Positions 17,198-61,550 of a stretch of 64,000 nt of DNA are shown here, piece after piece. The position numbers were made by a program, and so were the translations under genes. The number at the start of each line of letters is the position of its first letter. Within the stretch, counting starts at the first letter, position 1. Origin of the DNA: an uncultured bacterium (GTDB lineage Bacteria; Muiribacteriota; Ozemobacteria; Ozemobacterales; Ozemobacteraceae); contig CAYRYU010000026.1 in the NCBI GenBank assembly GCA_964428355.1, positions 11,521 through 75,520 of the forward strand, in the 5' to 3' direction. The notes beneath the pieces were generated by a model. The model was not told the DNA's origin, did not search any database, and was given only the letters and a program-made list of their open reading frames with translations.

Positions 17198-17227
17198 TTG
17201 ACATATCTGGATTTCGAATGCTATTTT
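17198..17227 (+). promoter_or_regulatory. sigma70-like promoter for the STAS gene, predicting a near-leaderless mRNA
   Basis: TTGACA (17198-17203), 17-18 nt spacer, TATTTT (17222-17227). The ATG at 17238 lies only about 11 nt downstream and has no Shine-Dalgarno sequence. Confidence 0.45.
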
Positions 17228-17237
17228 TGATTCCAAC

Positions 17238-17594
17238 ATGGATGCTTTTTCGATTCGCATTGAATCTCATGATCCCGTGACGATCATCCGGATCCAGGGC
17301 TATCTTGCTCTGGAGGCCGGCCAGGAGCTTCACGAAAGGTTGTTCGATCTTTTGAAGCAGGGAAAACTCCGCTTCCTCCTCGATTTTTCCGAGTGCAAAC
17401 TGATCAGCAGCCCCGGAGTGGTGAGCCTTCTCGAACTGGTGATCAAGGTAACGGATGATTTCCGGGCCCGAATTGCGATCTCGGGACTGGACGACCTGAA
17501 AACAAAGGTATTCAAGATGGCCGGTGTTTCAAACATCGCCCCGGCTTTTCCGCAGGAATCCCAGGCATTGGGTCATCTCCTCAAGGACAGCTAA
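17238..17594 (+). CDS. STAS-domain anti-sigma-factor antagonist (SpoIIAA/RsbV-like)
   Basis: 118 aa. Typical layout: VTIIRIQGYLALEAGQELHERL...LRFLLDFSECKLISSPGVVSLLEL...ISGLDDLKTKVFKMAGV, with the conserved phosphorylatable Ser position (ISSPG). Confidence 0.9.
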   Translation: MDAFSIRIESHDPVTIIRIQGYLALEAGQELHERLFDLLKQGKLRFLLDFSECKLISSPGVVSLLELVIKVTDDFRARIAISGLDDLKTKVFKMAGVSNIAPAFPQESQALGHLLKDS

Positions 17595-17699: not shown

Positions 17700-18023
17700 A
17701 TGGTTCGTTCCGCGATTTCCCTCTTCCTCGTGGTTCTGACCAGCGTCTTTCTATCCGGATGCTGCTGCCCCGCTCTTGATCTCTCAGCCCTTTTCGGGGG
17801 CGGCCAGACGACCTTGAACGCCCCTACCCAGACCCAGTCCCAGGATGCCGCCGCAGCGAAACAGACCGCCATCGAAGCAAAGGCAGCGGCTGACCAGGCT
17901 CTGGAAAAGGCGAACCAGCAACAGACGCAGATCGATGCTCTCAAGACCTCGATCAAGGAAACGAATTCCACCTCTCCGGCGGGAACATCATCCAGCACGG
18001 TTCCGGCAGCCGACTCGAAATAG
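17700..18023 (+). CDS. small lipoprotein with Ala/Gln-rich coiled coil
   Basis: ATG at 17700 preceded by AAGGAG. MVRSAISLFLVVLTSVFLSGC lipobox, then AAAKQTAIEAKAAADQALEKANQQQTQIDALKTSIKE. Confidence 0.7.
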   Translation: MVRSAISLFLVVLTSVFLSGCCCPALDLSALFGGGQTTLNAPTQTQSQDAAAAKQTAIEAKAAADQALEKANQQQTQIDALKTSIKETNSTSPAGTSSSTVPAADSK

Positions 18024-18091
18024 GGAAAGCCGGGTCCCATGAAACCAGGTTTGATGGCCCCGACAGGGATGGCCGGCCTTTCCGCAGACAC

Positions 18092-18664
18092 ATGACGGAA
18101 AAAGGGGCCAGGGTGTTCCCCGAATCGGAACTGGTGCAGAAGGCAAAGCAGGGCCTCCAGGAAGGTTACGAGGGGCTCGTCGACCGCCACCTCGGGGGAG
18201 TGCATGCCTTTCTCATGCACCTCCAGGCACCGGAATCGGTTCGTGATGACCTTGTCCAGGAAACGTTCGTAAAGGCATTCCGGTCTATCGGAGGCTTCGA
18301 TGCCTCGAAACCCTTCGGATCCTGGCTCCTCACGATCGCAAGGCATGTCCTTTACGACCATAATTCCAACGCGAAGAGACAACTCGAAGCCCGGAGCCCG
18401 CTCGGGAGGCCGGCCCCCCACCACGATATCTCCCAGGGAGTCATCGATCGCCTGTCTGTCAGGCAAATCCTGACCAGGCTTTCCCCTGCCGACCGCCTTC
18501 TGATAGAGCTTCGCGTTTTCCAGGGGATGTCCTTCCCCGAAATCGCAGGGCTGTTCGGAGAAGCGGTTGGAACGATGAGGGTGAGGTTGCATCGAATCCT
18601 CGCCGGGCTCAAGGAAAGGATCAATGACGCGGAGGAAAGGGAAAACAGGAATGAACAAGCCTGA
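18092..18664 (+). CDS. ECF-type RNA polymerase sigma factor (sigma-70 family)
   Basis: Region 2 (DDLVQETFVKAFRSIGGFDASKPFGSWLLTIARHVLYD) and region 4 (LSPADRLLIELRVFQGMSFPEIAGLFGEAVGTMRVRLHRILAGL). Confidence 0.9.
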   Translation: MTEKGARVFPESELVQKAKQGLQEGYEGLVDRHLGGVHAFLMHLQAPESVRDDLVQETFVKAFRSIGGFDASKPFGSWLLTIARHVLYDHNSNAKRQLEARSPLGRPAPHHDISQGVIDRLSVRQILTRLSPADRLLIELRVFQGMSFPEIAGLFGEAVGTMRVRLHRILAGLKERINDAEERENRNEQA

Positions 18665-19256
18665 ACTCTGCCGGGACGTTTTCGACATCCTGTCCGGGGC
18701 ACCGGCAGGAGACCTTCCGCCCCACCTCGCCGCTCACCTTGCCGACTGTTCGGAATGCAGGGCGTTGAAAGCCACCCTTTCGGCTGTTGCCGAAGCCCGT
18801 TCGACTCTCGATCCAACAGTTCATGACAGTCTGAAAGCCGGAATACTCGGATCGGTGTGCCCGGCGGGTCCCTCGTCGACCGAGGGGGGGTGCACTCCCT
18901 CGGCCGGTTTGAATGAGGAACCACAAATCCCGGAATCAACGGTTTCAAGGGTTCTGGGAATACCTGCAAAAGCCATCCCATTCGTTGCCGGGGCAATCCT
19001 CGTTCTTTTCCTGGGATTTCCCATGTTCAAGAATCTCTTGACCCGGGTTTCGGGAGGCCGAACGGCAGAAGTTTCCAAGACCTTTCTCCAGGCGCAACCC
19101 CCTGGTTCACGACCGCCACCGGGCGCGGGCGGTGCAGAGCCCGGCAACCGCATTTCGTCCGGTCCATCGCAGCCGGCAGGTTCACCTCCTGCCGAGGTCA
19201 CCGAACAATCCAACCCGACCGGTACCATGGGGATTCCCCCGGTGGACGCCAAGTGA
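18651..19256 (+). CDS. zinc-finger (zf-HC2) single-pass anti-sigma factor
   Basis: ATG at 18651 overlaps the sigma-factor stop. H-x3-C-x2-C motif (HLADCSEC). TM helix IPFVAGAILVLFLGFPMF. P/G-rich extracytoplasmic tail. Confidence 0.8.
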   Translation: MNKPELCRDVFDILSGAPAGDLPPHLAAHLADCSECRALKATLSAVAEARSTLDPTVHDSLKAGILGSVCPAGPSSTEGGCTPSAGLNEEPQIPESTVSRVLGIPAKAIPFVAGAILVLFLGFPMFKNLLTRVSGGRTAEVSKTFLQAQPPGSRPPPGAGGAEPGNRISSGPSQPAGSPPAEVTEQSNPTGTMGIPPVDAK

Positions 19257-21289
19257 TCCCGATCCGGCCCGCAGAACGAGGGAACCTGGCCAAGCATACG
19301 AGAAAGGGCATCGCACTCTGGCTGGTTCTTCTCGTCCTGATCGTCCTCGGAACCCTGGCCTTCCGCTATGCATGGATGGCCAGCTCCGGCCGTGCGGTCG
19401 TTTTCCGCTTCGAGCAGAGCGGCATCGCCCGGGATCTTGCCGATTCCGCCTCGCTCGAGGGCCTTGCCTGGCTTCAGAAAAGGACCGCCTCCCCGGAGAC
19501 CCCGGAAAGCAGGTGGCTGCTCGAACGTAGTCCCACTCCCCTTCCTCTCCCGGTTCCAATGACGCTGGAACAGGCCGGCAGGTCGATCGGCGGGGATTTC
19601 GCTCCCCTGATCGAAACCGAAGCCAGATGCCTGGATTTCCGGGGTGAAAGCAGCATGAAGAACCGATATGGGCCCGGTGAGGGCGTAGGAACCCTCGAGA
19701 TTTCGGTCCGGGTAAGGATCTCGTCACCCTCTGGCGGAGGAAAGGACCGCGCGGATGTCCATCTTTCGAGGTTCCACGATTTCAAGGTTGCCGACATCGT
19801 TAGCCCCCGGTCCAATGTAGGCCAGCGCGATTCCTACTTCCAGGGTTTCATTCTGGATTTCGCTTTCTTCCTGCGAGACGGGGTCTCGGAGTTCCGTTCG
19901 ACCCTGGGCGCGAACCTGAATTCCCGGGGAACGCGCCTTCAGATCATCCAGTCGCATCTGGACCCGGCACACCGGGGAAAGGTCTTCATCGGGGGAACCG
20001 AAGACCAGGCCGCCGACCGTCTTGTTTTTCTCAACATCGACGAAGCCCGTGGGGACCTCATTCCTTCGCTTCCCCGGAAGGTGATTCGAACGGTCGGTTA
20101 CGACGAGCTGAGGATCCTCTTTCCAAGGTTGAGGTATTACGAGGGAAAACATCCCCTTCTGCTGCCGGTTCTGAGGAAACTCCGTGGAATCTTCGAGGCG
20201 GCAAACGTTCCCCTGGTCAGAAATCAGCCCGCCGCATCCGATCCGGTGGGAATATGCGAAGACCAGGTTCGGACGTTTCTTCGCTCGGTCGCCAAAGACG
20301 AAGAGGCGAATTCCGATCCGGGCCTGGATCTCGTGATGGACCTTCCCGCGCTCCTTTCAGATCCCGCCCAGGCGGATTCGGTCCTCGAAGGAAGGCTCCG
20401 GCAGCGTTTCATCCACTTCGTCACCTTCCGCTTCGATATCTCCGGTATCGTGGATCCCACCACCCTGGTTCTCGAGCCGGATGACCGGAAGCTCCTGGAC
20501 TCCCTCCTCCCCTGCACTCCGCCCCCCTCGCCACCCCTGACGAACACGAACCTCCGGGATTTTTTGGAAAAACTCCCCGAAGTAAACGGCACCCCCCCAG
20601 ATCCCGGGCTTTCAATCATCTCCCGTTTCGACACCGACTTCCTGTACCGTCCGGGCTTGACCATGTCTAGCCGGCTTCGCCCCGATTCCTTCGCGGTTCC
20701 AAGATTCTTCAATGCGAGCGGCAGGATGATAACCGCGGGAACGCCAAACCCGGGAGGAATGGAACCGTTCGCGCACGTCAATCTCTGGGGATACCGCATG
20801 ACCGACCCCGTTTCTCTCGAAGAAATAGGGGTTCTGGACAGGAAGAACCGGAAGATCAATCTTCGGGGCATCAAGTGGACAGACGGAATGGTCTCCCTGG
20901 GAGACCCGGGAGGACCGACATCGATCGAAGGCCAGGGAATACTAATCTCAAAGGGAGGCTTCCGCATCCTGGGACCCCTGAGGAAATCGTCCCCCGAGGC
21001 CCTTTGCATCCTTTTCACCCACGGAGGGGACATCGAGGTGGACACGGACCAACCCGTCGAATCATCGCTGATAGCCATTCCCGACGGCACAACCGGAGGG
21101 GAGATCCTTCCCCTGAAAACACTCGATCTTTTCGGGGCCTTTGCGGCCAGAACCCTTTCCCTCAACAGGTGGAAAGGGAAAGGGATCCACAAGATCCGCT
21201 ATGATCCTCTTCTCAAGCGGGATTCCCCGCTCAGAAGCATCGTGATTTCTCCCGCGGTTTCCTTCCACAGGATCACGGAGGGAATCTGA
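19253..21289 (+). CDS. giant GspK/PilX-like N-terminally anchored protein (module A, first gene)
   Basis: 678 aa. The GTG start overlaps the anti-sigma stop (GTGA). N-terminus TRKGIALWLVLLVLIVLGTLA. Collinear with the 50967-52940 product: LVFLNIDEARGDLIPSLP vs PIFLNIHESLAGIIPKAP, and C-termini IRYDPLLKRDSPLRSIVISPAVSFHRITEG vs IQYDERLKPERDIYSITISPVPQFQRISES. Confidence 0.8.
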   Translation: MIPIRPAERGNLAKHTRKGIALWLVLLVLIVLGTLAFRYAWMASSGRAVVFRFEQSGIARDLADSASLEGLAWLQKRTASPETPESRWLLERSPTPLPLPVPMTLEQAGRSIGGDFAPLIETEARCLDFRGESSMKNRYGPGEGVGTLEISVRVRISSPSGGGKDRADVHLSRFHDFKVADIVSPRSNVGQRDSYFQGFILDFAFFLRDGVSEFRSTLGANLNSRGTRLQIIQSHLDPAHRGKVFIGGTEDQAADRLVFLNIDEARGDLIPSLPRKVIRTVGYDELRILFPRLRYYEGKHPLLLPVLRKLRGIFEAANVPLVRNQPAASDPVGICEDQVRTFLRSVAKDEEANSDPGLDLVMDLPALLSDPAQADSVLEGRLRQRFIHFVTFRFDISGIVDPTTLVLEPDDRKLLDSLLPCTPPPSPPLTNTNLRDFLEKLPEVNGTPPDPGLSIISRFDTDFLYRPGLTMSSRLRPDSFAVPRFFNASGRMITAGTPNPGGMEPFAHVNLWGYRMTDPVSLEEIGVLDRKNRKINLRGIKWTDGMVSLGDPGGPTSIEGQGILISKGGFRILGPLRKSSPEALCILFTHGGDIEVDTDQPVESSLIAIPDGTTGGEILPLKTLDLFGAFAARTLSLNRWKGKGIHKIRYDPLLKRDSPLRSIVISPAVSFHRITEGI

Positions 21290-21291
21290 CG

Positions 21292-21777
21292 GTGCGGAGC
21301 CTGCAAAAATGTGCCCCGTCCCGGTTTCCCCGCCCCGGGTTTTCCCTTCTCGAGGTCCTGATCGCCTGCTTTCTTCTCGCCCTGGCCCTTCTTCAACTCC
21401 TCTGGATGAACCGGTATTCCAACGAATGGGCTATGGATGCCTATTATCGGGCGATGGCAACCTCCCTTGCCCGCGAACCGATCGTGATCTTCAGGGGTTT
21501 TGGGGCACGCTGGCTCCGTGACTACGAGAAGCACCAGCTCCCCCAGTATCCCCTGGGTTGGAGCCCGATTCGGGAAGCGGACGGGGATCTCTCGATGCAC
21601 CCCGCGGAATCGGGGGTTTTCCAACGGAATATCTCCCTGACCAACCTTGAACAAGCCGGGAGCAGGGGTGTCCGGGTCACCGTCACCGTGGTTCCGGAGG
21701 GCGGGACCCGTGTCATGCGGTGGCTCCGCCGGGACCAGCTTGTACTGGAAGCCTTGATTCCGGAGGGAATGCCGTGA
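21292..21777 (+). CDS. prepilin-type pseudopilin (module A, second gene)
   Basis: ...RFPRPG|FSLLEVLIACFLLALALLQLLWMNRYSNEWAMDAYYRAMATSLAREP. Close paralog of the 52937-53419 product. Confidence 0.85.
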   Translation: MRSLQKCAPSRFPRPGFSLLEVLIACFLLALALLQLLWMNRYSNEWAMDAYYRAMATSLAREPIVIFRGFGARWLRDYEKHQLPQYPLGWSPIREADGDLSMHPAESGVFQRNISLTNLEQAGSRGVRVTVTVVPEGGTRVMRWLRRDQLVLEALIPEGMP

Positions 21778-22562
21778 GAGGGAATCTCTCAGCCTTTTTT
21801 CCGGCGACCGATTGTCGGAAGCATTGTCGGGAGCGCGGGATGACGCTTTTGGAGGCCGTCCTGGTGGTCTCCCTGGTGGTTCTTCTGCTCGGCCCGATAT
21901 ATCAGGTTTTTCACCATGGTACAAGAGCCTCGCTCAGGGGGATGCTGCACGTCGAGACGTCCATGGAAGCGATGCGCGTCCTTCGTCAGGTTTCCGACGA
22001 CCTCCGTGATTCCTGCCTTCCCATGGACGAACAGGGCTTCACCCTCGATTTCTCGAAAATGCTCGGAACCGACGGGGTTCCGCCGCTGCAGTCCTACACT
22101 TTCCTCAGATTCCCCCAACATGGTTCCCCCGACCAGGTGATGCAGTTCGCCCGCCAGGGTAAGGCATCCCGGCGGGCCAGCCGGATCACCTACCGCCTCG
22201 AGCCTCTTTCGAAAGCCGGGTTGAAACACAGGCTGATCAGGACCGAGCGATTCCATCCCGAACACCCCCTCGCGTCGACCTATCCCGGAGGGGAGAGAAT
22301 AAGCATCCTGAGCGAGCGGGTCCATTCCTTCATTCTTCTTCCCGACTCGGCACGTTCCGGAAACCGTGAGCTGCACTTCTTCTGGGTGACGCTCCAGATG
22401 GTCGATTCCCTCTCCCCCGCCGATGAGGAAAGGATTCTCCAACGAAGGGAACAGGCCGCTATCGGAGACTATTTCGACGTGGTCTACCCCGAATTCTTCA
22501 ACGCCTTCCAGAACCGGGGTTTCTTCAACCGGAACTGGCACACGGGGATTTCGGCCCCATGA
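21774..22562 (+). CDS. prepilin-type pseudopilin (module A, third gene)
   Basis: ...CRERG|MTLLEAVLVVSLVVLLLGPIYQVF. Proposed GTG start at 21774 overlaps the upstream stop (GTGA); the track ORF starts at 21720. Paralog of the 53416-54225 product. Confidence 0.8.
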   Translation: MRGNLSAFFPATDCRKHCRERGMTLLEAVLVVSLVVLLLGPIYQVFHHGTRASLRGMLHVETSMEAMRVLRQVSDDLRDSCLPMDEQGFTLDFSKMLGTDGVPPLQSYTFLRFPQHGSPDQVMQFARQGKASRRASRITYRLEPLSKAGLKHRLIRTERFHPEHPLASTYPGGERISILSERVHSFILLPDSARSGNRELHFFWVTLQMVDSLSPADEERILQRREQAAIGDYFDVVYPEFFNAFQNRGFFNRNWHTGISAP

Positions 22563-23355
22563 AGAACGCGATGATGCCAGATCCCACGAAGAAAAGGGAA
22601 AGAACCTGGTGGGTCGTGAGCCCCCAATGGACGATCGGGTTCAGGCGGATGAACTCCACGAGAAACCGGGAAACCCCGAACCATACGAGAAAGATCGCGT
22701 ATCTTCGCCCCGACCCAACCTTGAGGGGGAGCGCCAGAAGCAGGATGAACAGGGCAATGTGGCTGAGGCTTTCGTAGAGTGGCGCGGGATGGACGGAGAT
22801 CGCCGCAGGAACCGGTTCCCCCGGATACATCGACCGGAAAAGATTGCAAAGCAACGGGTTTCTTTCCGAAAGGGTGGAACACAGGCCGTTGGGAAACGTC
22901 ATCCCGAACCACGAAATGGTCGGAGCCCCATAGCAACCGTCCCCGGAGAAGAGGCATCCCAGCCTGCCGACGGCGTATCCAACAGCGAGCCCGGGGGACA
23001 TCAGGTCCCCAATCCGCAGGATCGATTGTCCTGCGTGCCTGATCCTGATCCAGCAAAGAATGGTTCCGAGGATGAACCCTCCAATAACGGAGAAACCGAA
23101 AAACGAGAAGACCGCATGAACCAGGTCGGACCGATAGGCAGGCCAGAACTCGAATACGCAGAGAATTCGTGCCCCGACAACGCCGCCGAAGATCGCCAGA
23201 ATAAACACATCGCGCAGAAGGACCATTTCCGCATCATTCTCCCGGAACTCCTTCCAGGAAAGAAAAAGGGCGAGACCGAAAGCCACCGTTACGAAAAAAC
23301 CGTAAATGGCGATCGGGAGAAGGATCGCAACCGGAAAACCAGTCCCCATCGGCAC
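22525..23355 (-). CDS. lgt: prolipoprotein diacylglyceryl transferase
   Basis: Polytopic membrane protein with Lgt-family blocks: ...GARILCVFEFWPAY..., GGFILGTILC, AVGRLGCLFSGDGCYGAPT, HPAPLYESL, VSRFLVEFIRLNP. Confidence 0.85.
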   Translation of the reverse strand: MPMGTGFPVAILLPIAIYGFFVTVAFGLALFLSWKEFRENDAEMVLLRDVFILAIFGGVVGARILCVFEFWPAYRSDLVHAVFSFFGFSVIGGFILGTILCWIRIRHAGQSILRIGDLMSPGLAVGYAVGRLGCLFSGDGCYGAPTISWFGMTFPNGLCSTLSERNPLLCNLFRSMYPGEPVPAAISVHPAPLYESLSHIALFILLLALPLKVGSGRRYAIFLVWFGVSRFLVEFIRLNPIVHWGLTTHQVLSLFFVGSGIIAFFMGPKSPCASSG

Positions 23356-29374: not shown

Positions 29375-29406
29375 ACCGCAACCGGCCCAGGGTGCTGGAC
29401 TTTCCC

Positions 29407-42240: not shown

Positions 42241-42561
42241 GGACTTTCCCATTCCTTGCTGACAAAAATGGGGGAATGTTCTACCATCATCCGGGTGGAA
42301 TATCTGCTGGAGGATTTCTTGAATTGAACGAAACGACGGGCGGCACCCCTGAGGAAGTCGAGGCCTTTTCGGACTCGTTGTTCGGCTACCATCCGCTTCT
42401 TCTGGCTGCCGGCATCTTCTCGGCCATTCTCGGTCTCCAGCTGGTCGTAGGTCTTTCCCACCTGGTGAAGCTTCCGTCGTCAGGGGTGTCGATCCTGGTG
42501 CTTGGCCTGCTCTTCCTCGGAATCACGCTCGCTTCGCGAAGATTCACAGGAATCTGGCTCA
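42241..42561 (+). repeat. right copy of the 321-bp direct repeat (promoter region and first 95 codons of gene 42276-43610)
   Basis: See 29407-29727. Confidence 0.9.
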
Positions 42562-50003: not shown

Positions 50004-50090
50004 ATCCGGTCGGGTCGGGTGAACCTGGCCTTCCAGATGTCCCGAGCCAGACCCCAGTTTCCGCCTGGAGTTGGTGCCTGCCCCGTTTCT

Positions 50091-50771: not shown

Positions 50772-50966
50772 CCCCTAGATCCTTTCTCTTTTCCGTTAGC
50801 CCTCTTGGTGGCTCTGAACAATGATATCACGGTCGACCGTCGGGCAAAACCGTCCGACTTCTTCCGGGCCATCACCCCTGTTGTGCTATCATCTCACGAG
50901 TCCTCACCTCAACTGATGGAGGGGCCCCGTGGGTATCCCGGAGATGATCGATTCGCTTCACCCGCT

Positions 50967-52940: not shown

Positions 52941-53419
52941 TGAAGCGAAAAGGATTTTCCCTTCTCGAGCTCCTGATCGGCTTCCTCATCCTTTCCATCG
53001 GAATCGGGAGTTTCCTCTGGTTGAACCGCATGTCGAACCAGGTCACGATGGACTCCTACTACCGCCTGCTTGCAACGAGATTGGCATGGGAACCGGTGGA
53101 GGTATGCCGGGCAATCGGGTTCTCGAGGTTGAGCCTCCTTCTTCGGAACTCCCCCAACGAGCCTTTGAAGGGATATTCAAACGAATGGATCCAGGTGCCC
53201 GAGAGTCAGGAGAACTCCGGCGGGTTTCCACGGCTTTTTCGACCTCCCGAAGCCTCCCTTTTCGAAAGGAAGGTGGTCTTCGGAGAGTTGAGCGATGGAA
53301 TGACTTCCCACATCGCGATCTCGGTCGAGGTGCGGCTGAAAGGTGAGTCCGCGTGGGGAAGGTTCCTGAAGAGAAATGTCCTGCAGGCCTCGGGCCTGAT
53401 CTGGGAGAAAGTCCCTTGA
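52937..53419 (+). CDS. prepilin-type pseudopilin (module B, second gene)
   Basis: MMKRKG|FSLLELLIGFLILSIGIGSFLWLNRMSNQVTMDSYYRLLATRLAWEP. The ATGA overlaps the upstream stop. Confidence 0.87.
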   Translation: MMKRKGFSLLELLIGFLILSIGIGSFLWLNRMSNQVTMDSYYRLLATRLAWEPVEVCRAIGFSRLSLLLRNSPNEPLKGYSNEWIQVPESQENSGGFPRLFRPPEASLFERKVVFGELSDGMTSHIAISVEVRLKGESAWGRFLKRNVLQASGLIWEKVP

Positions 53420-54225
53420 GAAGGTCGAGAAGACAGGGTTTCACCATGATCGAGGCGATCATTGTCGCAACATTGATTGCACTTCTCGTCATCCCTCTCT
53501 GGGACACCCTCAAGGGCGGGGCGAAGGGAAGCCTTTTCGGGATGCGAAAGATCGACACCTTTCTCGAAGCGGAAAGGATCCTGCGGTTGCTCCATCAGGA
53601 TCTCAAGTGCTCTCTTTTCATCATCCCCAGCGGGAAATTCAACGGGCAGAACTCTTTTCTGCTGGGAAATCCGGGAGGTGTTTCGGCCGGCCCGAAACCG
53701 AACATCGTCGTTACGAAACAGGGAACCTGGCCAAACCTCCGATTTTCGTTCGTCTACTTCCCTTTTCAGGGAGAAATCGATCGGATCGTCGGCGCCGACA
53801 GGTCGGAGGGCCTTGGGAATCGGCTTTTGAACAGGATCGAATATCGGCTCGAGGCATCGAAGGAATACCCTTCCTGCTTTTCACTGGTCAGGAAAGAAGT
53901 CTTCCATCCGGATCACCCCCTGGCGGGGGTGAATCCGGGCGGGGCGGTGGAAAAGGTGCTCAGCAACAGGGTCAATTACTTCGAAATCGAGTGTTTTTCT
54001 CCTCCCGAGGCTCCCGACGTCCAGGTTTTCTGGGTAAGGATTTCCCTGTATGAAACCCCCCCCGCTGGAATTGGAACGAATCCACCCGGAAGCATCCTGG
54101 CAGATTCGGGCAAGATCGTGGAATTCTTCGATACCGTATCATCGGATTTTTTCCAGAACATCCGTCAGACGGTCGGTTATCGTCCCTGTTACCACATCTA
54201 CGGAACCAGCGCTCCAACTGAGTGA
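53416..54225 (+). CDS. prepilin-type pseudopilin (module B, third gene)
   Basis: (TTG)RRSRRQG|FTMIEAIIVATLIALLVIPLW. Proposed TTG start at 53416 overlaps the upstream stop (TTGA); the track ORF begins at 53353. Confidence 0.8.
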   Translation: MRRSRRQGFTMIEAIIVATLIALLVIPLWDTLKGGAKGSLFGMRKIDTFLEAERILRLLHQDLKCSLFIIPSGKFNGQNSFLLGNPGGVSAGPKPNIVVTKQGTWPNLRFSFVYFPFQGEIDRIVGADRSEGLGNRLLNRIEYRLEASKEYPSCFSLVRKEVFHPDHPLAGVNPGGAVEKVLSNRVNYFEIECFSPPEAPDVQVFWVRISLYETPPAGIGTNPPGSILADSGKIVEFFDTVSSDFFQNIRQTVGYRPCYHIYGTSAPTE

Positions 54226-54290: not shown

Positions 54291-55280
54291 CTACCAGATC
54301 GGGTTCTGGTTCACTTCTTCGGTATCCTGGGTTTGCTCGACGGACCCGTTTCCTTTTTCCTCCGCGGAGTCGGAGGTCTTGGTGAGGCCTTTGTTTTCCC
54401 CTTCCTCGACCTTCCCATCGGATATCGGAATGACGGCCAGGTCGGGAAGAGAGTTATCCAGAATCGCTTTTCCCAGTTCTGTCTTGAAATCCGCATCAGA
54501 TTTCATCAGTTCGAAGAACTGGGTCATGATCTCACCCACGCTCCAATCGCTGAATTTCTTGGTAACGCCATCGACAACCTTTGTCGACGCTTTTTTCTCG
54601 AGCATTTCGATAACTCCATCCGCCACATCTTCACCCCTGGCCGCCCCACCCATTTTGGCCAGTAGAGAGATGATGCCGGAAATCATTGCCTTTCCATCGC
54701 CTTTTCCATTGTTAGCCGTTGCCGCTTCGACGATCCCGGCTACATCACCCAAGGCTTCCAACATTTTTCCCACGGTCTCGAGGTTGGGAATCCCCGCCAT
54801 GGCAAGGAAACTCGCTTCAGCCTGGAGGAAATCCCCTACACTTTTGTTCTGTATCGAACTAACCATATACCCCAGGAATTTTATGCCGTTGTTCACTCTG
54901 TCGAGGGGAGGGACGGCCATCAGGAGGATGTCGCCGAAGCTGTTCGCAATCGAGGTCAGAAGGCCATCCTGAGACATGCCCAGAATCCCGGTGAAGATTC
55001 CCGGCAACCCGTTCTTGAGAACCTCCGGATTTGTAAGGGTCTTGACGACCTGTGATTGGGCCTGGTCGGCGAACTGGCAGACCGAATCCTTGATCTTTTC
55101 CAGCTCGACCCCGACATCGAGGTTGTCGGCAACGATCTTTCCGAGTTTGCTGCCCTGGGCTACAGCTTGATCGATAACCCCCGAAATGCCATCCAGAGGG
55201 TTTCCCGCGTTCGCGACCGAGCAGGAAAAGACCAAGGCCAGAAGCAAAAGCCCCCATTTTCGACCCAGGATCCTGACCAT
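54291..55280 (-). CDS. secreted helical hypothetical protein with acidic C-terminal tail
   Basis: Signal peptide MVRILGRKWGLLLLALVFSCSVANA. Low-complexity helical body rich in G/A/V/K/D. By eye it looks less GC-rich than the flanking DNA; this was not computed. Confidence 0.72.
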   Translation of the reverse strand: MVRILGRKWGLLLLALVFSCSVANAGNPLDGISGVIDQAVAQGSKLGKIVADNLDVGVELEKIKDSVCQFADQAQSQVVKTLTNPEVLKNGLPGIFTGILGMSQDGLLTSIANSFGDILLMAVPPLDRVNNGIKFLGYMVSSIQNKSVGDFLQAEASFLAMAGIPNLETVGKMLEALGDVAGIVEAATANNGKGDGKAMISGIISLLAKMGGAARGEDVADGVIEMLEKKASTKVVDGVTKKFSDWSVGEIMTQFFELMKSDADFKTELGKAILDNSLPDLAVIPISDGKVEEGENKGLTKTSDSAEEKGNGSVEQTQDTEEVNQNPIW

Positions 55281-55392: not shown

Positions 55393-58300
55393 TCAGCGGG
55401 TTCCTTCCGATTTTCCTGAGTCCTGCTTTTCCTCGAGCGACCGGCGAAGAACGAGAACAGTGCGGTCGTCATCCGGTTCGGAGGGTCCCATATAGGCTGC
55501 GATCCGGCCGAGAACGGCATCGATGAGTTTTTCTACCGGAAGATCCCTCGTTTCGGTCCATGATTCGTCGATGGCCCGGGCCAGGGCGGGAAATCCGAAG
55601 ACCTTTCCCGACGGATTCTTGCACTCAACGAGACCATCGGAGTACAGGAGAATCAGCGATTCGCCGGAGAGAGGGATGTTTACCGAGGCAAACCGGACCC
55701 GCTTGATGATTCCCACCGGGGTGGATTGGGTCTCGATGAAAAGCGCTTTTCCCGATGGAGAGTCGATTCTAAGGGGCGCGCAATGGCCGGCATTGACGAT
55801 GGAAAGCTGGTCCTTTTCGGTGTCGAGGACCCCGAACACCGCGGTCATCATCTTTTTCTTCTGCAACATGTCGAGGAAAAGGCTGTTGAGCTTCGTGAGA
55901 AGCCCCTCGGGATCGTCCTGGAAATCCCGGGCGAGAAGACGGACCCCCACTTTCGCGATCGCGGTCACCAGGCCCGCCGAGATGCCGTGCCCGGCCACAT
56001 CCCCGAATGCGAAAGCCAGCCGATGCTCAGAGAGGGGGAAGAAATCATAGAAATCCCCTCCCACGGCCTGCATCATCCGGTTGGCCCCGGCGATTTCCCA
56101 TCCGTCCTGCTCCAGCCCTCCTTGTGGAAGAATGGCCTGCTGGATCTGTCGGGCGAGCTCCATGTCCCCGAGCCGTTCCAAGGCCTGGTTGAAAGCCACG
56201 CTGAGCTTCCCCAGCTCATCTTCGGCAAGGGAACCCAGACGGATGTCGAACTCCTTCCGTTGAATCGCCCTCATTCCCGCCCGCAGGTTTTCCACGGGTT
56301 GGATGAACCGCCAGTTCAAAAGCAGGATCAGACCGATACCGAAAAGCAGGAACCCCCCTCCCGCGATGGAAAGCTTGAGGCGCAAGGACCTGAGCGGCTC
56401 GAAAACGATATCGAGAGGGGCCCTGGCAACCAGGATATAGAGGAGGAGTTTCCCGCACCGTCGGGCGGCAACAAGTTCCCTTCCGTTCTCTCCGGTTGAC
56501 AGGAACGAGACTTCGGAGGTCCCACCCCCGAGCCTCCGGAAGACCGGAAGGAACTTGCGGTAATCGAGCATCCCTGGGTGGCATTCGAGGTAGGGAAACA
56601 GCGAGACCGCATGGAACTTCACCGGTTCGGGAAAACCCCCGTTTCGCGCCGCGATCGGCGAAAGAAACTCGGATTGGATGTATCTTGCGAAGTGCGAGGA
56701 AAAGAGGAAGTAGTCCTTCCTCCCTGTCGCATTCGAGAGAAGGTCGACGAATATGAAGTCTTCACGGTTGAGAGCCCCGAACCGCATGAAAGAACCCCTC
56801 GAGAGGTTGAATGTGCGGAGACCGAAATCGAAATCCTCCAGGAAGCTGTCCACGATCAGACTTCCCGCAGAAGCGGGTGAGGGGGGCATATTCTGTCCCC
56901 CTCCTGAATCACCCGCTGAGTCGAACATCGAACGGGCGATCCCACGGAAGAACTTCCTGTTGCTGTTATCAAGGTCCTCGCTCCCCGGCGACCTTGCTGT
57001 GTCGCTCACATCCTTCTTCGACCATGGTCCGGAGGAGTTCAGTGTTCCGCGGAGGCTTTCGACCCAGGGGGCGGACATTGCCTTGCCGTCACCTATCGCT
57101 CCCGCCTGGGGAATCCGGTCGACCATGGCCTCAACCCAATCTCTTCTGAAGGTGAGGCTTTTTTGGCCGAACCATTTGAAGAATGCTTCGTCCGAATTGA
57201 AAAACTGCCCCCCGGAAATGATTTCACTGGTAGAGGAAATCAGGAGGGAATAGTTGCATCCGATCGTTTCGGGAAGACTTGCCATCCTCTCCCGCAAGAG
57301 GGCCGGGTTACCGGCAAGATCCCGCCAGGCATTCTCCAGACCGCGGTAGAATAGAACCTTCTTAAGAAGATGGGTTTCGAAATCGTTGTCGATTGCAGCC
57401 AGGGAATCGAGCATCTTCTGCCCAAACCGCTTGGAAAGCACGCCTTCCTCCTCGTATTGGAAGGAAATCCCCCAGAAGAACGTGAACAATGCGGGGACCC
57501 CGAAAACCAGAACCAGGAAGAACGCCATCTTCCACCTCAAAGGGAAGGGAAGACTCCAACCTTCACGAGCGACTTTCCAGAGGAAGGACAGGAAGGCCAG
57601 GCTGACGACGAGGTACACTGCGAAAATCAGGGCGACCCATACCCGGGGAGCCTCAGGAGAAGGAGAAAGGCCGAGAAGGAAATCCCCGCCTTCAAGGCTC
57701 CGGACGACAACCTGGAAACCCTGGTGGAAGAAACGGTTCCCCGGCTCGCTCTCGAGCCTGGAAAGCAGTGCGGGCAGCGAATCCCGGGAGAAACCGGAGG
57801 GGAGCTTCCCATGCGGAGCTCCCTGAAACCGCGCTACGAAATGGAGATCCCCCGCCTGCGAAAACCGGTTAATCGCCTGGCTTAGGAGAAACCTGGCAAG
57901 AAGGGGCTCCCGTTTGATCATCACCAGAATCCCCGCAATCTCCTCCGGTCTTCTTCCGGCCTCGAACCTGACGTATGCCCCAAGACAGGGATCGCTGTCG
58001 GGAAGAATGTGAACGCGGCGGTGGAAACCCTTCAGGAAGGCGATCTTCTTCCGGATTCCCGGAATCGACGTCTCGAGTTTCCCGATTTGGGAATCGGAAA
58101 GTCGGGTTTCCTGATCGAACGGTTTGCACAATTCCTGAAACAGGACTTCCAAAGCATCGTTTCGGGCTGATGGGAGAATCGCCTTCCCTGCCCCGTTGAA
58201 GACACAGACATCGAAGATACCAGCAGGAAAAGACCCGAGGCGGGTTCGAAGGCCGAGATCGACCATCTCTGGTTGTGCGGGTTTGCCCAGAAGCGCTTCA

Positions 58301-58551
58301 TCGAAAAGTCCCCGGTCCAGGAGCGGGGTGAGAGCCTCCTGGATATCCTGCCCCTGGTCGATCATGGAGAGACCGTCCTCGATTTTCAGGAAGCCGCTCT
58401 CCACGCTGCTCTCCATGCTCCTTTGCATCAGGAATCCTGCCCCGGTCCAGAAGAAGAACGCGGGACTTCCCCAGAGGGCAACTGCAAGCAGCAACCATCT
58501 CCGGAAAAAGAAGGTCTGTGTACTGGGAGACCTGGCACCAGCCGGACTCAT
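55393..58551 (-). CDS. large membrane sensor phosphatase, HAMP + canonical PP2C/SpoIIE domain
   Basis: 1052 aa. HAMP domain (IQPVENLRAGMRAIQRKEFDIRLGSLAEDELGKLSVAFNQA). SpoIIE motifs GGDFYD, FGDVAGHGISAGL, YSDGLVE and DDDRTVLVLRR. The ATGA overlaps the upstream gene. Confidence 0.9.
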   Translation of the reverse strand: MSPAGARSPSTQTFFFRRWLLLAVALWGSPAFFFWTGAGFLMQRSMESSVESGFLKIEDGLSMIDQGQDIQEALTPLLDRGLFDEALLGKPAQPEMVDLGLRTRLGSFPAGIFDVCVFNGAGKAILPSARNDALEVLFQELCKPFDQETRLSDSQIGKLETSIPGIRKKIAFLKGFHRRVHILPDSDPCLGAYVRFEAGRRPEEIAGILVMIKREPLLARFLLSQAINRFSQAGDLHFVARFQGAPHGKLPSGFSRDSLPALLSRLESEPGNRFFHQGFQVVVRSLEGGDFLLGLSPSPEAPRVWVALIFAVYLVVSLAFLSFLWKVAREGWSLPFPLRWKMAFFLVLVFGVPALFTFFWGISFQYEEEGVLSKRFGQKMLDSLAAIDNDFETHLLKKVLFYRGLENAWRDLAGNPALLRERMASLPETIGCNYSLLISSTSEIISGGQFFNSDEAFFKWFGQKSLTFRRDWVEAMVDRIPQAGAIGDGKAMSAPWVESLRGTLNSSGPWSKKDVSDTARSPGSEDLDNSNRKFFRGIARSMFDSAGDSGGGQNMPPSPASAGSLIVDSFLEDFDFGLRTFNLSRGSFMRFGALNREDFIFVDLLSNATGRKDYFLFSSHFARYIQSEFLSPIAARNGGFPEPVKFHAVSLFPYLECHPGMLDYRKFLPVFRRLGGGTSEVSFLSTGENGRELVAARRCGKLLLYILVARAPLDIVFEPLRSLRLKLSIAGGGFLLFGIGLILLLNWRFIQPVENLRAGMRAIQRKEFDIRLGSLAEDELGKLSVAFNQALERLGDMELARQIQQAILPQGGLEQDGWEIAGANRMMQAVGGDFYDFFPLSEHRLAFAFGDVAGHGISAGLVTAIAKVGVRLLARDFQDDPEGLLTKLNSLFLDMLQKKKMMTAVFGVLDTEKDQLSIVNAGHCAPLRIDSPSGKALFIETQSTPVGIIKRVRFASVNIPLSGESLILLYSDGLVECKNPSGKVFGFPALARAIDESWTETRDLPVEKLIDAVLGRIAAYMGPSEPDDDRTVLVLRRSLEEKQDSGKSEGTR

Positions 58552-61550
58552 AGCGGATCACCACCTCCTCCCGGGGTGGCAGTGCCTCGGTCAGATTCCC
58601 GATCGATGCAGAGAATGACCTGTTCCCCTATACCGTGGTTCCCGGAAAGCCCCCGATCGGCTTCCTGGAAGATTTCCTCTCCGACTTGATCCAGGGGGGT
58701 CTTCCCAAGCCTTTCCAACAAGTCCCAGAAACGACCTCGAGGAGACCGAGGATCGGGTGCGAAAAATTCCGAATGGAGCCCGGGGGTTCCGATCAGGATC
58801 CGCCCTCCCTTGGGGAAGCCCATCCGGAACTCCTTGCCGGGCTCCTCCGAAGGCGCGGGGGAAGCGCCCAGGTCGAGCAGCTCAGGACTCGTTCCCCCGC
58901 AAAGGCATGCCAGGAGCCAGTTCCCAACCGCATGGAAACGGACTCCCACCAGGTCCGGATCCCAGATTCCAAGCAGGAGGGCCACTTCGTGCCCCTGCCG
59001 ACCTTGGGTGGCAGGATTCCCTGGGGGCTCTTGCCCCGGCTCCTCCCGGGGGCGGAAATCCTTGGGGCCCTGCCCGAGATCAAGGCGGAGGAAATCCATT
59101 CCCCGACGAAGGATTTCCCCGGGTGGCAGCCCCGGACAACGCTCGAACAGAAGCCGGAACGTCGTCATGTACATCGCCAGAAGAAGGCCTCGGAGTATTC
59201 CGGAGTGTCGGATCTCACCGGCAAGAAAGCCGATTCCCCCTCCTGGAATCGGGACCACCATGAAAAAGCTTCCCGCGATCGGTTCGACGCCGCGATGGAA
59301 CCCGCGTGCGCGGAACTGCCCGACGGAAATGACCCTTCCCGGAAGGAGTTCCTTCTGGACTGCTGATGCGGCCTGAATCTCCTCGAGGTCGGCCAGGACC
59401 CCGTTCAACCCTCCCGCAACTTCTTCGAGTTCATCCCCTGACCGAAAGCTGATCCGGTCCTTCAGGCGAAGGCATGTCAGGCTTTCCAGGCCTGCAGACA
59501 AGTTTTGCAGCGGGTCCAGAAGGCTCTGGGAAAAGATGAGCCCGAGGGCAATCATGAAAACCATTGTCAGGATGGAAAGGAACCGGAAACGCCTTTCCAG
59601 GTCCGAAAGCTCGCTTTCATGCACGGAGAAAGGCGTGAAGAGGAAAAGATGGAAATCCAAAAGCCTGGTTCCCGGGGCCACTGTTGCGAGGACCGATCTG
59701 CCCTTGAGGGTTCCGATCAACGATCTTGGGGAACCTGTCTGTCTTGTCTGCTCCAGGAGCTCACTGAAAAGTGCGTTTTCACCAGCCCTTCCGGGGATGT
59801 TGCCCAAAGGCGAGGAGCGGCTCTTTGGCGCGGCTCCCAGCCGGAACGGCGAGTTCCGTGCGAGACGGCGCCTCGCTCTTTTCAGGAAATCCGCCTCGAG
59901 CATGATCGAGTCGAATGTCAGGAAAAGCACGCCACGGGGGGTGCCGGATCGTGTCCTGATGAAATCCACGAACACCAGACCGGGATGGTTGAGAAAGTTG
60001 TAGGTTCCGATCCGTCCCATCATCCTGAAAAACGTCTCCAGGACGAAAGGCGCGGAAAGAAGGGCATCCGTCATCGGATTGGACGGAGGGATTCCTTCCA
60101 GTCCTTTGAAGTGATAAGCCAGGAGATTGGAGCCGAGAGATTGGAATACGTTCTTGAAGTATTTTCTGGGAATCGAGCCCGAAGACTCTTTCTCGTGAAA
60201 GACCGCATCCCAGAGATCCTTGCCTTCTCCAGCGAGACAGGCGATGTAGAACTCCTCATGCTCGAGCCCGGAGCGGAACACCTTCAGATAGTCCGGATCG
60301 GATGACCCCATGGCCTGTTTCATACTTCGCCGGAGTTCCTCCTCCCTCGGTTTCAGGGAAGGGAGGAACTGGTCGTCCACCTTCTGGAGTATCTGGAGCG
60401 CCCTTTCATGGCACTGTCGGACGATGGCATCCCGGCGCGAGTCCACGTAGGAGGTCCCAAATGCGAAAAGCCCTGCGCAGCTGACCCCTCCGGCAAGGAG
60501 AAAGATCCCCATCAGTTGCGAACGGATGGGAAGGCGCAAAGGTTTTCCCCATCGCCATCTTGCCAACAAGCCCAATACCAGGAGAAGGCCGGAAAAGGCC
60601 ACCAATGTCCTCGGGAGGTAATCGCCCGGCCGACGGTCTCTCACCGGACGGAATCCAAAGATCCTCAATCGCGAGGGGAGGTCGAAGAAGCGGACCCAAC
60701 ATCCGTCCACCCGGTTCTCCTCACCTGAATGCACCTCTCCCAGCCATTTCTTCATGGAGGGCGTGATTCCCGAGGGAAATTTCCCATGGAGAATCCCCGG
60801 GTTTTCCAGGTCCACCCATCCGAGCCGGATCTCCTTGTCGACCAGCTTTTGCTGCCGGACGACCGACTCGTTCGTGAACAGATCGCGTGGAAGAAGATTC
60901 AGGTCCAATAGGAAGATCATATCCCCGGCTGGTAGGGCTTTCGCCCTTTCCCCTCTTCCGAGCTTTTGGGGCGGCAGTGGAAACCACCCGCCCAGTCCCA
61001 AAAGGCCCAGTTCGGCAAAATCGAGGACCCTGCCGGGGGATTTCGCCATGAAAAGCACCTTCTCGGAACTTCCGCAAAAGGATTTCAGGAACGAATCCTC
61101 TCCAGGGCCAAACGGTTTGTCCAGGTTTTCCCTGCGCTGTTTCAACAGGCGCATAAACCGTTCCGAAGCGAGCTTGCGGGTGGTGGGGATTCCGTCAAGT
61201 TCCAGCCGGTTTCCGGCCGGGCCGAAAAAATAGACGCTGAGGCATCCCTGGGGAAGGAGGCGGAACAAGGCTGGAAGTCTCCCGCCCCATTTCCAGCGGC
61301 TTATCAGCTGCCTGGCGAAGTCTTCACAACGGGAGTCGGCCCGGGATTTCCGAGATGTGGCGGAAACCACCACCTCGAGTTCTTTTTTTTGCGATTCCTC
61401 TCTGGTCTGATGGCTCTTCGCTTCCAGTTCCCCGAGGACGTGGAGAAAGCCTAGGAACGGGAAAACGACGAGCACCAGGAGCAGAAAAGCGGGAAGCAGA
61501 CCCACCTGGGTTTCGAGAACCCTTTCCTTCACATCACAATGGTAAGCCAC
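58548..61550 (-). CDS. large membrane sensor protein, HAMP + degenerate PP2C/SpoIIE-like domain (predicted pseudophosphatase)
   Basis: 1000 aa. HAMP-like segment (LLDPLQNLSAGLESLTCLRLKDRISFRSGDELEEVAGGLNGV). The C-terminal domain aligns to SpoIIE but carries AGSFFMV for GGDFYD, LAGEIRHSGILRG for GDVxGHG, IGTPGLHSE for SDGLxE, and EQVILCIDRE for DDxTxLxLRR. Confidence 0.85.
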   Translation of the reverse strand: MAYHCDVKERVLETQVGLLPAFLLLVLVVFPFLGFLHVLGELEAKSHQTREESQKKELEVVVSATSRKSRADSRCEDFARQLISRWKWGGRLPALFRLLPQGCLSVYFFGPAGNRLELDGIPTTRKLASERFMRLLKQRRENLDKPFGPGEDSFLKSFCGSSEKVLFMAKSPGRVLDFAELGLLGLGGWFPLPPQKLGRGERAKALPAGDMIFLLDLNLLPRDLFTNESVVRQQKLVDKEIRLGWVDLENPGILHGKFPSGITPSMKKWLGEVHSGEENRVDGCWVRFFDLPSRLRIFGFRPVRDRRPGDYLPRTLVAFSGLLLVLGLLARWRWGKPLRLPIRSQLMGIFLLAGGVSCAGLFAFGTSYVDSRRDAIVRQCHERALQILQKVDDQFLPSLKPREEELRRSMKQAMGSSDPDYLKVFRSGLEHEEFYIACLAGEGKDLWDAVFHEKESSGSIPRKYFKNVFQSLGSNLLAYHFKGLEGIPPSNPMTDALLSAPFVLETFFRMMGRIGTYNFLNHPGLVFVDFIRTRSGTPRGVLFLTFDSIMLEADFLKRARRRLARNSPFRLGAAPKSRSSPLGNIPGRAGENALFSELLEQTRQTGSPRSLIGTLKGRSVLATVAPGTRLLDFHLFLFTPFSVHESELSDLERRFRFLSILTMVFMIALGLIFSQSLLDPLQNLSAGLESLTCLRLKDRISFRSGDELEEVAGGLNGVLADLEEIQAASAVQKELLPGRVISVGQFRARGFHRGVEPIAGSFFMVVPIPGGGIGFLAGEIRHSGILRGLLLAMYMTTFRLLFERCPGLPPGEILRRGMDFLRLDLGQGPKDFRPREEPGQEPPGNPATQGRQGHEVALLLGIWDPDLVGVRFHAVGNWLLACLCGGTSPELLDLGASPAPSEEPGKEFRMGFPKGGRILIGTPGLHSEFFAPDPRSPRGRFWDLLERLGKTPLDQVGEEIFQEADRGLSGNHGIGEQVILCIDRESDRGTATPGGGGDPL

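Follow-up and report, generated by a model that had tools for sequence, protein, structure and literature searches.

A conserved neighborhood of pilin-like cassettes, ECF sigma factors and HAMP sensor phosphatases or cyclases in uncultured Riflebacteria

Introduction

How is a STAS/phosphatase signaling module related to the pilin-like genes beside which it is encoded, when no partner kinase lies nearby? This question is raised by a 64-kb stretch of an uncultured Riflebacteria genome (contig CAYRYU010000026.1; hereafter the window, meaning the whole 64 kb analyzed), which encodes one STAS protein, tandem membrane sensors with HAMP and SpoIIE-type PP2C domains, and an extracytoplasmic function (ECF) sigma factor. 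These genes are interspersed with three copies of a three-gene pilin-like cassette. A first-pass annotation had proposed positions 17198–61550 as a candidate integrated system in which phosphorylation would control the choice of a pilus or pseudopilus tip module. Here, the gene content was reexamined and the neighborhood was compared with that in related genomes. The cassette and its regulatory neighbors form a real, conserved and lineage-specific unit, in which known kinds of parts stand in a combination that we did not find described.

Results

Open reading frames (ORFs) were called across the window, which has a guanine-plus-cytosine content of ~58%, and were scanned with Pfam and NCBIfam. 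Each cassette comprises a gene for a large protein (BIG) and two genes for small prepilin-type proteins (ppA and ppB). The sensors form two tandem pairs, 1A/1B and 2A/2B, and the window contains no further members of their family; it has a single STAS gene, a single ECF/anti-sigma pair and a single HEAT-repeat protein. The order on the plus strand is STAS, lipoprotein, ECF sigma, anti-sigma, BIG1, pp1a and pp1b. Between the ECF sigma gene and ppA on the plus strand, most adjacent genes overlap or are separated by only a few bases, and the same holds for 1A and 1B. By coordinates, the anti-sigma stop overlaps the BIG1 start, and pp1a starts 2 nt past BIG1.

To follow this arrangement beyond the window, a degenerate DNA pattern derived from the BIG alignment was searched against a species-representative genome set. 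It matched 33 contigs, nearly all of them Candidatus Riflebacteria/Rifleibacteriota metagenome-assembled genomes (MAGs), with Ozemobacter sibiricus and Rifleibacterium amylolyticum among them. Two profile scans also gave almost only Riflebacteria MAGs. Judged by these matches, the BIG cassette unit so far looks Riflebacteria-specific. The loci, numbered with the prefix L, comprised 33 of 8 kb, 7 from a reverse search, 15 from metagenomes and 17 genomic ones that include up to 10 kb of flanking sequence; an additional genomic match proved to be L021, which the set already contained. The cassette recurs in about 35 related loci and in at least 3–4 copies per genome; at least four contigs each carry it in MAG nHGRbin4 and in Ozemobacter sibiricus BY5. 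BIG, ppA and ppB are strictly syntenic in the related loci, with ppB after ppA in 17 of 19.

The neighbors of the cassette were defined by ORF clustering in 19 loci for which as much as 10 kb of flanking sequence was available. An ECF sigma factor was found in 14 of them, an anti-sigma factor in 13 and a HEAT protein in 12, while HAMP-PP2C proteins of 930–1050 aa were present in 11, STAS in 10 and a HAMP-cyclase pair in 4. The distances from the cassette were 0–2.5 kb for the ECF/anti-sigma pair, 0–5 kb for HEAT, 2.5–5 kb for STAS and 2.5–7.5 kb for the sensors. The set is kept within ~7 kb although order and strand vary between locus types. The orders observed include STAS-ECF-anti-sigma-BIG, STAS-HEAT-BIG followed farther on by PP2C-PP2C, PP2C-HEAT with BIG and then STAS beyond it, and HEAT-ECF on the far side of the cassette. 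The first-pass annotation had held that its proposal would fall if the adjacency were missing from relatives. The adjacency of PP2C, STAS and ECF genes to the cassette proved to be conserved in many Riflebacteria genomes despite the changes in order and strand.

The association was also seen from the opposite direction. A reverse search starting from the N-terminal region of the sensors yielded seven loci, and a cassette was located within 10 kb in all seven. Two of these loci were new. One carries the full set; in the other, STAS lies next to PP2C, ECF sigma and a ZAS anti-sigma gene, followed by a very divergent BIG'/ppA'/ppB' cassette. An earlier metagenome scan with the sensor alignment had returned no matches. 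Pairwise similarity between BIG proteins correlated with that between their adjacent sensors (r = 0.58, 13 pairs, Mantel 44/5000), and the reciprocal best matches of BIG and sensor coincided for L037/L054 and L040/L050. Such a correlation of sequences is consistent with co-inheritance of cassette and sensor as units. In two loci (L155, 5647–7812; L156, 10007–12172), BIG homology falls into two blocks separated by ~900 bp, with ECF, HEAT and sensor genes undetectable in the vicinity; these may be interrupted or divergent cassettes without regulators.

The presence of STAS went along with the type of sensor output. STAS was found in 9 of 11 PP2C-type loci compared with 1 of 8 other loci (Fisher p = 0.005, a test that ignores kinship). 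In L050 the STAS and PP2C genes are directly adjacent, and in L036 and L054 they are divergent neighbors. Because STAS co-varies with PP2C, it is assigned to the PP2C output, of which it is very probably the substrate or partner as far as gene neighborhoods can tell.

In a second type of locus, a large syntenic group represented by L039, L041, L045, L046 and seven metagenome contigs, the cassette is adjoined by tandem ~1000-aa proteins that combine HAMP with a class III adenylate/guanylate cyclase. The cyclase domains were confirmed by Pfam; other loci show only parts of this tandem arrangement. Over 456 columns, the N-terminal sensor region of the upstream cyclase (C8) aligned with that of the PP2C proteins (hhalign, 98.3%, E = 2e-14). 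The cyclase-type loci contain the ECF/anti-sigma pair and the HEAT protein, and STAS was absent from every one examined. Since STAS is absent where the sensor carries a cyclase instead of PP2C, phosphorylation is not the conserved link to the cassette; the sensor is. This argues that the sensor is the element conserved with the cassette and that the cytoplasmic output would be interchangeable. The cyclase pair (L039, 2278–8171; also L041, L045, L046 and L143–L153) occupies the place of the PP2C pair beside the cassette. A Sel1 protein, a DHHA1 phosphoesterase and a GAF-PAS-cyclase-TPR protein are also encoded in the loci with this pair.

All four sensors of the window had been described as HAMP-PP2C proteins, which is accurate for 1B and 2B. 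Sensor 1B (26588–29374, plus strand) matches HAMP with 52 bits and SpoIIE with 135 bits and has the motifs GDVTGHG, YSDGL and DDTT. Sensor 2B (55393–58551, minus strand) matches HAMP with 36 bits and SpoIIE with 137.5 bits and has GDVAGHG, YSDGL and DDRT. The metal-binding Asp motifs of PP2C (GDVxGHG, YSDGL, DDxT) are therefore intact in these two proteins only. In 1A (23664–26591, plus strand; four transmembrane (TM) segments, HAMP E = 1.3e-10, partial SpoIIE match), the corresponding positions read LGTSHGRG and ASVPP, and the DD motif is missing. The four-TM protein 2A (58548–61550, minus strand) has a sub-threshold HAMP match (E = 0.039) and no SpoIIE match, with AGEIRHSG, GTPGL and GEQV at these positions; its relationship to 1B was evident from BLAST (E = 2e-14, residues 305–919). 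By their motifs, 1A and 2A are degenerate pseudophosphatases, and since they have lost the metal-binding Asp residues, each pair consists of an upstream dead paralogue and a live phosphatase. The start of 1B overlaps the stop of 1A by 4 nt, and 2A and 2B likewise overlap by 4 nt with 2A upstream. All PP2C domains in the relatives were intact, and the dead copies are, on the same motif comparison, a peculiarity of the genome from which the window derives. Each of the four proteins has four hydrophobic segments, which predicts two extracytoplasmic loops of ~260 aa each ahead of HAMP. An AlphaFold2 model of 1B, computed from the four window paralogues, was unusable (pLDDT, the predicted local distance difference test score, of 42).

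The STAS gene reported in the first-pass annotation was recovered at 17238–17594 on the plus strand. It encodes a single-domain protein of 118 aa (PF01740, E = 3.5e-7, 30.4 bits compared with a cutoff of 22.6; TIGR00377, E = 1.3e-7, under its cutoff). Ser58, in the motif S-S-P-G, aligns with the phosphorylated Ser58 of SpoIIAA (1TH8_B). This Ser was invariant in all 14 cassette-linked homologues, where the motif takes the unusual form [N/S/A]-S-[P/T]-G. A sequence resembling the sigma-70 promoter consensus (TTGACA-18-TATTTT, 17198–17227, plus strand, 10 of 12 matches; a consensus match only) sits 10 nt 5' of the STAS gene.

The ECF sigma assignment was equally sound. The protein of 190 aa (18092–18664, plus strand) matches Sigma70_r2 (E = 7e-15) and r4_2 (E = 6e-11) as well as TIGR02937 (75.8 bits compared with a cutoff of 42.9). 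It is the sole sigma factor in the window and has regions 2 and 4 only; no group-3 (SigB/SigF-like) sigma factor is encoded there. It is followed by a membrane anti-sigma factor of 210 aa (18624–19256, plus strand) with the motif HLADCSEC (HxxxCxxC), one TM segment at residues 117–135 and a Pro-rich C terminus. No Pfam family, zf-HC2 included, matched this protein at E ≤ 0.01. A sigma factor with regions 2 and 4 and an HxxxCxxC anti-sigma factor after it identify the two as an ECF sigma/ZAS anti-sigma pair. Homologues of the anti-sigma factor (cluster C5) come after the ECF gene in 13 of the 19 loci.

The HEAT-repeat protein of 783 aa (9652–12003, plus strand) matches Pfam HEAT_2/HEAT and has one predicted TM segment at ~660–684 and a C-terminal domain of ~100 aa. 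Its matches in the PDB were HEAT/alphaRep proteins only. The family (cluster C3) was present in 19 loci and is the commonest neighbor of the cassette in relatives. Since its gene often shares an operon with that of the ECF sigma or of STAS, the HEAT protein is a candidate partner of these proteins. The frequent translational coupling of the family to ECF sigma factors marks an unrecognized class of ECF-associated membrane protein.

The absence of an RsbW-type kinase from the window, which the first-pass annotation had pointed out, was borne out: no ORF of at least about 120 aa in the 64 kb matched HATPase_c. Pfam detected no HATPase domain in the small ORFs beside STAS in relatives. RsbW-like proteins were also sought among the ORFs of ~400 kb of neighborhoods using a rough hidden Markov model of two RsbW/SpoIIAB sequences, and two-component-type histidine kinase genes were the only matches, a weak negative compared with the Pfam scan of the small ORFs. 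One of them was verified by Pfam as a hybrid histidine kinase. The simplest reading is that the kinase is encoded elsewhere in the genome; a partner switch that is independent of a kinase is conceivable.

The two pseudopilin modules of the first-pass annotation are real and paralogous, with ~30% identity by BLAST (19253–22562 and 50967–54225). BIG1 (19253–21289, plus strand, 678 aa), the founding member of its family, has a conserved Gly, a 58-residue N-terminal helix and a beta-rich body. BIG2 (50967–52940, plus strand, 657 aa) is its paralogue (30% identity over 659 aa, E = 1e-69); this gene replaces an initial call as a 973-aa ORF. The ~960 bp upstream of BIG2 (50004–50966) contain no convincing gene, only a 226-aa minus-strand ORF without a family match. 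The first prepilin-type protein of module 1, pp1a (21292–21777, plus strand, G|FSLLE), is a paralogue of pp2a and has a PilV-like N terminus (E = 1.9e-6); it falls just short of PF07963 (20.8 bits compared with a cutoff of 21.2). The second, pp1b (21720–22562, plus strand, G|MTLLE; PF07963, 18.3 bits, under the cutoff), is a paralogue of pp2b (E = 5e-32), with an uncertain start that gene callers place at 21840. In module 2, pp2a (52937–53419, plus strand, G|FSLLE) matches PF07963 with 28.3 bits and TIGR02532 with 16.8 bits (cutoff 16.3) and has a PilV-like N terminus, and pp2b (53353–54225, plus strand, G|FTMIE) matches PF07963 with 23.8 bits.

Cassette 3 (12208–15993, minus strand) has the same architecture and is only distantly related to the other two. 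It encodes pp3b (12208–12840, minus strand, G|FTIAE; PF07963, E = 1.3e-5; TIGR02532, 21.1 bits compared with a cutoff of 16.3), pp3a (12837–13322, minus strand, G|FTLLE; PF07963, E = 1.2e-5; TIGR02532, 19.9 bits) and big3 (13309–15993, minus strand, 894 aa). The last is a distant BIG relative by hhalign to the BIG alignment (94.4%, E = 8.7e-8, 103 C-terminal columns) and has an N-terminal hydrophobic helix after Gly with no Glu at +5. Its N-terminal 57 aa (residues 29–85) weakly match TIGR02600 (E = 0.003, 15.5 bits compared with a cutoff of 332). A membrane-anchored protein of 281 aa (15965–16810, minus strand; no significant Pfam or NCBIfam match) overlaps the big3 start and is probably encoded by the first gene of the cassette-3 operon. 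Between the convergent HEAT and pp3b genes, a 52-nt inverted repeat (12014–12176, 73% complementary, 59-nt loop) is possibly a bidirectional terminator.

The prepilin motif G|F/M-x-x-x-E occurs in all six ppA and ppB proteins of the window. N_methyl or TIGR02532 scores exceed the cutoff for pp2a, pp2b, pp3a and pp3b, are borderline for pp1a and fall below it for pp1b. Judged by their predicted class III signal peptides, ppA and ppB are prepilin-type proteins. The BIG proteins keep the Gly and the hydrophobic helix and have no Glu5. A BIG1+BIG2 profile searched against 1.84 billion protein representatives defined a family of 171 representatives, mostly of 650–700 aa, with a nearly invariant Gly directly before the hydrophobic N terminus. 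When BIG1, the 1B sensor domain and a 50-sequence BIG alignment were used in word-index protein searches, nothing but the query was returned, and exact BIG1 matches were confined to short metagenome contigs (15–17 kb, Logan). Neither BIG1 nor BIG2 matched any Pfam or NCBIfam family, GspK included. An AlphaFold2 model of BIG from 50 sequences was confident (pLDDT 91.7; predicted template modeling score, 0.86) and consisted of the 58-residue N-terminal helix and the beta-rich body. Foldseek found no PDB match to the model at E < 0.3. An assignment of BIG as GspK, PilY1 or an adhesin was therefore ruled out, and BIG is taken to be pilin-like at its N terminus only.

The view of positions 17198–61550 as a single system did not hold. 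The genes at 29.4–50 kb are unrelated (TPR, GH5, VWA, methyltransferase, Vps62-like, TilS, two ABC exporters and TPR-ankyrin), so that the window contains two or three neighboring units instead of one 44-kb system. Cassette 3 and the HEAT protein, moreover, fall outside that range. The spacing given for the modules was confirmed: each of the two ends ~1.1–1.2 kb from a tandem ~1000-aa pair, with a single gene between them. That gene had been placed on the opposite strand in both cases; in module 2 it lies on the strand of the PP2C pair.

In module 1 the intervening gene encodes the prolipoprotein diacylglyceryl transferase Lgt (22525–23355, minus strand), correctly named in the first-pass annotation (PF01790, E = 1.3e-40). 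No lgt match was found in any related locus examined. It was for this reason ruled out as a component of the system and is probably a bystander. In module 2 it encodes the secreted helical protein of 329 aa (54291–55280, minus strand), also correctly called (signal peptide and composition; no Pfam match), which is co-directional with 2A and 2B and downstream of both. Homology to the helical lipoprotein C11, which follows ppB elsewhere, was rejected (hhalign, 0.1%). The Lpp-like small lipoprotein between STAS and ECF sigma (17700–18023, plus strand, lipobox LSGC) is not conserved in relatives.

Several other features were noted in the window. A 321-bp direct repeat, 96% identical between copies (29397–29717 and 42241–42561), flanks a 12.8-kb block of unrelated genes (TPR, GH5, VWA, methyltransferase, Vps62-like). 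The first copy begins 23 bp after the 1B stop, and the second overlaps the TPR gene at its start (42276). The repeat matched neither Rfam nor a tRNA and is possibly a duplication or recombination scar. The N-terminal part of a minus-strand ORF (41670–42461) lies inside this repeat; the last 46 residues of this ORF match a Schlafen group 3 helicase domain (E = 4e-9), and it resembles a truncated gene remnant. Three large tandem proteins are encoded at 287–2665, 2791–5094 and 5281–7272 on the minus strand; the first two are 59% identical paralogues, one bears an S-layer homology domain, and they are probably cell-surface proteins. Eukaryote-type domains occur in a Vps62 + FRG1/fascin-like protein (39434–41092) and in a protein with a PLA2_B (lysophospholipase) catalytic domain (61908–63890).

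Discussion

The gene content, paralogy, catalytic-motif status, conservation and neighbor co-variation reported here are observed, and from them we infer every functional step of a scheme in which the cassette is under ECF sigma control, with HAMP sensors as input and PP2C/STAS or cyclase as output. We hold this scheme with about as much doubt as confidence. The ECF sigma factor would drive expression of the cassette, cassette 1 being translationally coupled to the ECF/ZAS pair. BIG, ppA and ppB would be processed by prepilin peptidase and would enter or prime a type IV filament with machinery encoded elsewhere, by analogy with minor (pseudo)pilin sets. The tandem, co-transcribed four-TM HAMP sensors would respond to a cue from the envelope or from outside the cell, possibly as heterodimers, because each pair in the window combines one dead and one live PP2C domain. 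The live domains of 1B and 2B would dephosphorylate the cognate STAS protein at Ser58, and unphosphorylated STAS would then change partners, its target being the sigma/anti-sigma/HEAT-protein node or something else. The STAS kinase would be encoded outside the neighborhood or be non-canonical. In the cyclase versions, the signal would pass via a cyclic nucleotide instead of STAS dephosphorylation.

A number of results weigh against this scheme. Neither the window nor the surroundings of STAS in relatives yielded a STAS kinase, and the phosphorylation cycle is therefore hypothetical. Where cyclases replace PP2C and STAS, the cassette evidently does without the STAS route, which cannot be a general requirement. 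Around some cassettes no regulators could be detected (L156), L049 has no sensor, and neither an ECF sigma nor a STAS gene accompanies module 2. The counts do not represent independent events, since many of the related loci are orthologous, and a control scan for background sensor density, anchored on TilS, matched no Riflebacteria. Among 52 operon starts, no shared ECF-like bipartite promoter motif rose above shuffles. The fold of the BIG model resembles neither GspK nor PilY1 nor any pilin of known structure, and no filament machinery (peptidase, ATPase, platform, secretin) is present among the Pfam-scanned genes of the window.

The main rival explanation reverses the direction of the signal. 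BIG-ppA-ppB would form a periplasm-spanning or surface pseudopilus tip, and the sensors would read its assembly, contact or ligand and signal elsewhere via PP2C/STAS or a cyclic nucleotide. In Pseudomonas, surface signals reach the cAMP and c-di-GMP pathways through minor pilins and PilY1, which counts in favor of this explanation. So do the co-variation of BIG and sensor similarities and the fact that the N-terminal extracytoplasmic/membrane part of the sensor stays the same whether PP2C or a class III cyclase forms the cytoplasmic output. However, transcriptional control of the cassette is the simpler explanation for an ECF/anti-sigma pair fused to its operon, and the unusable sensor model offers this explanation no help. 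We consider it rather unlikely. An elaboration in which a pseudopilus-like sensory tip is read by heterodimeric HAMP sensors, with a kinase-independent STAS switch between the (pseudo)phosphatases and the HEAT/anti-sigma node that would link a type IV filament to the ECF sigma factor, and with PP2C or cyclase as plug-ins, is speculative, and we would be surprised if it were correct.

In the model of the first-pass annotation, the phosphorylation state of STAS, set by PP2C, selects post-translationally among tip modules for a single pilus or pseudopilus machine that they share. The presence of several paralogous cassettes per genome, both here and in nHGRbin4 and BY5, and the PP2C pairs adjoining two of the cassettes agree with it, and there is a precedent in HmpUVW, where the STAS output acts on a target other than a sigma factor in type IV pilus motility (PMC6495340, PMC8256260). 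This model must nevertheless accommodate one STAS protein for three cassettes, the absence of STAS from cyclase-type loci and the lack of machinery genes nearby; co-transcription of the cassette with its own ECF sigma points to transcriptional selection instead. Its probability appears to us to be low. The neighborhood might also reflect co-regulation or clustering of envelope genes in a signaling-rich genome, with the PP2C/STAS target located elsewhere, for example, a general stress sigma factor with RsbW. Neither the kinase nor a group-3 sigma factor was found locally, further signaling genes occur in the neighborhoods (the hybrid histidine kinase, the GAF-PAS cyclase and the DHHA1 protein), and the TilS-anchored control gave no Riflebacteria background for comparison, all of which would fit such clustering. 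It is difficult to reconcile with the reciprocal association in seven of seven loci, the co-variation of STAS with PP2C, the persistence of the set through rearrangements, the layered distances from the cassette and the absence of sensor-family genes elsewhere in the window, and we judge it improbable.

The unit shares several features with the RsbU-RsbV-RsbW and SpoIIE-SpoIIAA-SpoIIAB systems: a PPM phosphatase with intact motifs (1B, 2B), a single-domain STAS protein with a Ser that aligns with the phospho-Ser58 of SpoIIAA, and a sigma gene adjoining the phosphatase and STAS genes. It differs from them in that the GHKL Ser kinase/anti-sigma factor was not found in the 64 kb or in related neighborhoods, the adjacent sigma factor is of the ECF type with its own membrane ZAS anti-sigma factor, and the phosphatases are ~1000-aa four-TM HAMP proteins of which two of four are catalytically dead.

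The cassette itself resembles the GspI-J-K(-H) set of type II secretion systems and FimU-PilVWX-PilY1 in co-encoding two small G|FxxxE proteins with a larger helix-bearing protein without Glu5. The weak N-terminal matches of ppA to PilV and XpsI and of pp3a and pp3b to GspJ were of the same kind. In contrast to those sets, the large protein comes first, several copies occur per genome, BIG has no Pfam or fold match to GspK or PilY1, and no secretin, ATPase, platform or peptidase genes lie nearby. The Verru_Chthon cassettes of Verrucomicrobia (TIGR02596/02598/02599/02600) are likewise multi-copy and combine one very large protein with several prepilin-type proteins; their function is unknown, and we know of no regulatory neighborhood described for them. 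The large protein accompanied by prepilin-type proteins and the weak match of the big3 N terminus to TIGR02600 constitute the likeness. However, the Riflebacteria cassette has three genes instead of four and belongs to a different phylum, and none of the nine cassette proteins matched the Verru_Chthon B, C or D models (TIGR02596/98/99).

Partner switches have been tied to type IV pilus motility in Nostoc (HmpU/V/W; PMC6495340, PMC8256260) and to type III secretion under an ECF sigma factor in Bordetella (BtrS/BtrUVW; PMC7498569). The claim of the first-pass annotation that such a link had not been described was therefore overstated. Both systems resemble the present one in the genetic tie of PP2C and STAS to a secretion or filament apparatus, but both own a cognate Ser kinase (BtrW, HmpW), and neither adjoins minor-pilin cassettes nor uses HAMP double-sensor phosphatases. 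In Pseudomonas aeruginosa SiaABCD, the HAMP-PP2C protein SiaA acts together with the kinase SiaB, the antagonist-like SiaC and the cyclase SiaD (PMC7647112). SiaA (NF038263) was the best named NCBIfam match of 1B and 2B, at 64 and 55 bits compared with a cutoff of 700. The likeness lies in a dimeric membrane HAMP-PP2C sensor acting on a small antagonist-like partner, in a non-sigma output and in the link to a nucleotide cyclase. In the window, however, the partner is a true STAS protein and not DUF1987, and the neighbors are ECF sigma and pilin-like genes and not GGDEF; Pfam and NCBIfam scans of the window revealed no SiaB-like kinase, DUF1987 or GGDEF protein. No paper describing the Riflebacteria unit was found in a full-text literature search.

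Comparative inference in organisms that are not yet manipulable limits the immediate impact of these findings. Two uncharacterized protein families are nevertheless defined, namely BIG, for which a confident model without a solved relative is available, and the membrane HEAT protein encoded alongside ECF sigma factors. The neighborhood also raises the question of how a STAS/PP2C pair works with no partner kinase encoded nearby. If the scheme of ECF-controlled cassettes with HAMP sensor input is correct, the loci would illustrate how an uncultured phylum connects its alternative pilin-like tip sets with envelope sensors and ECF sigma factors dedicated to them, and also how a single sensor module occurs in nature with PP2C/STAS or with cyclase as its output.

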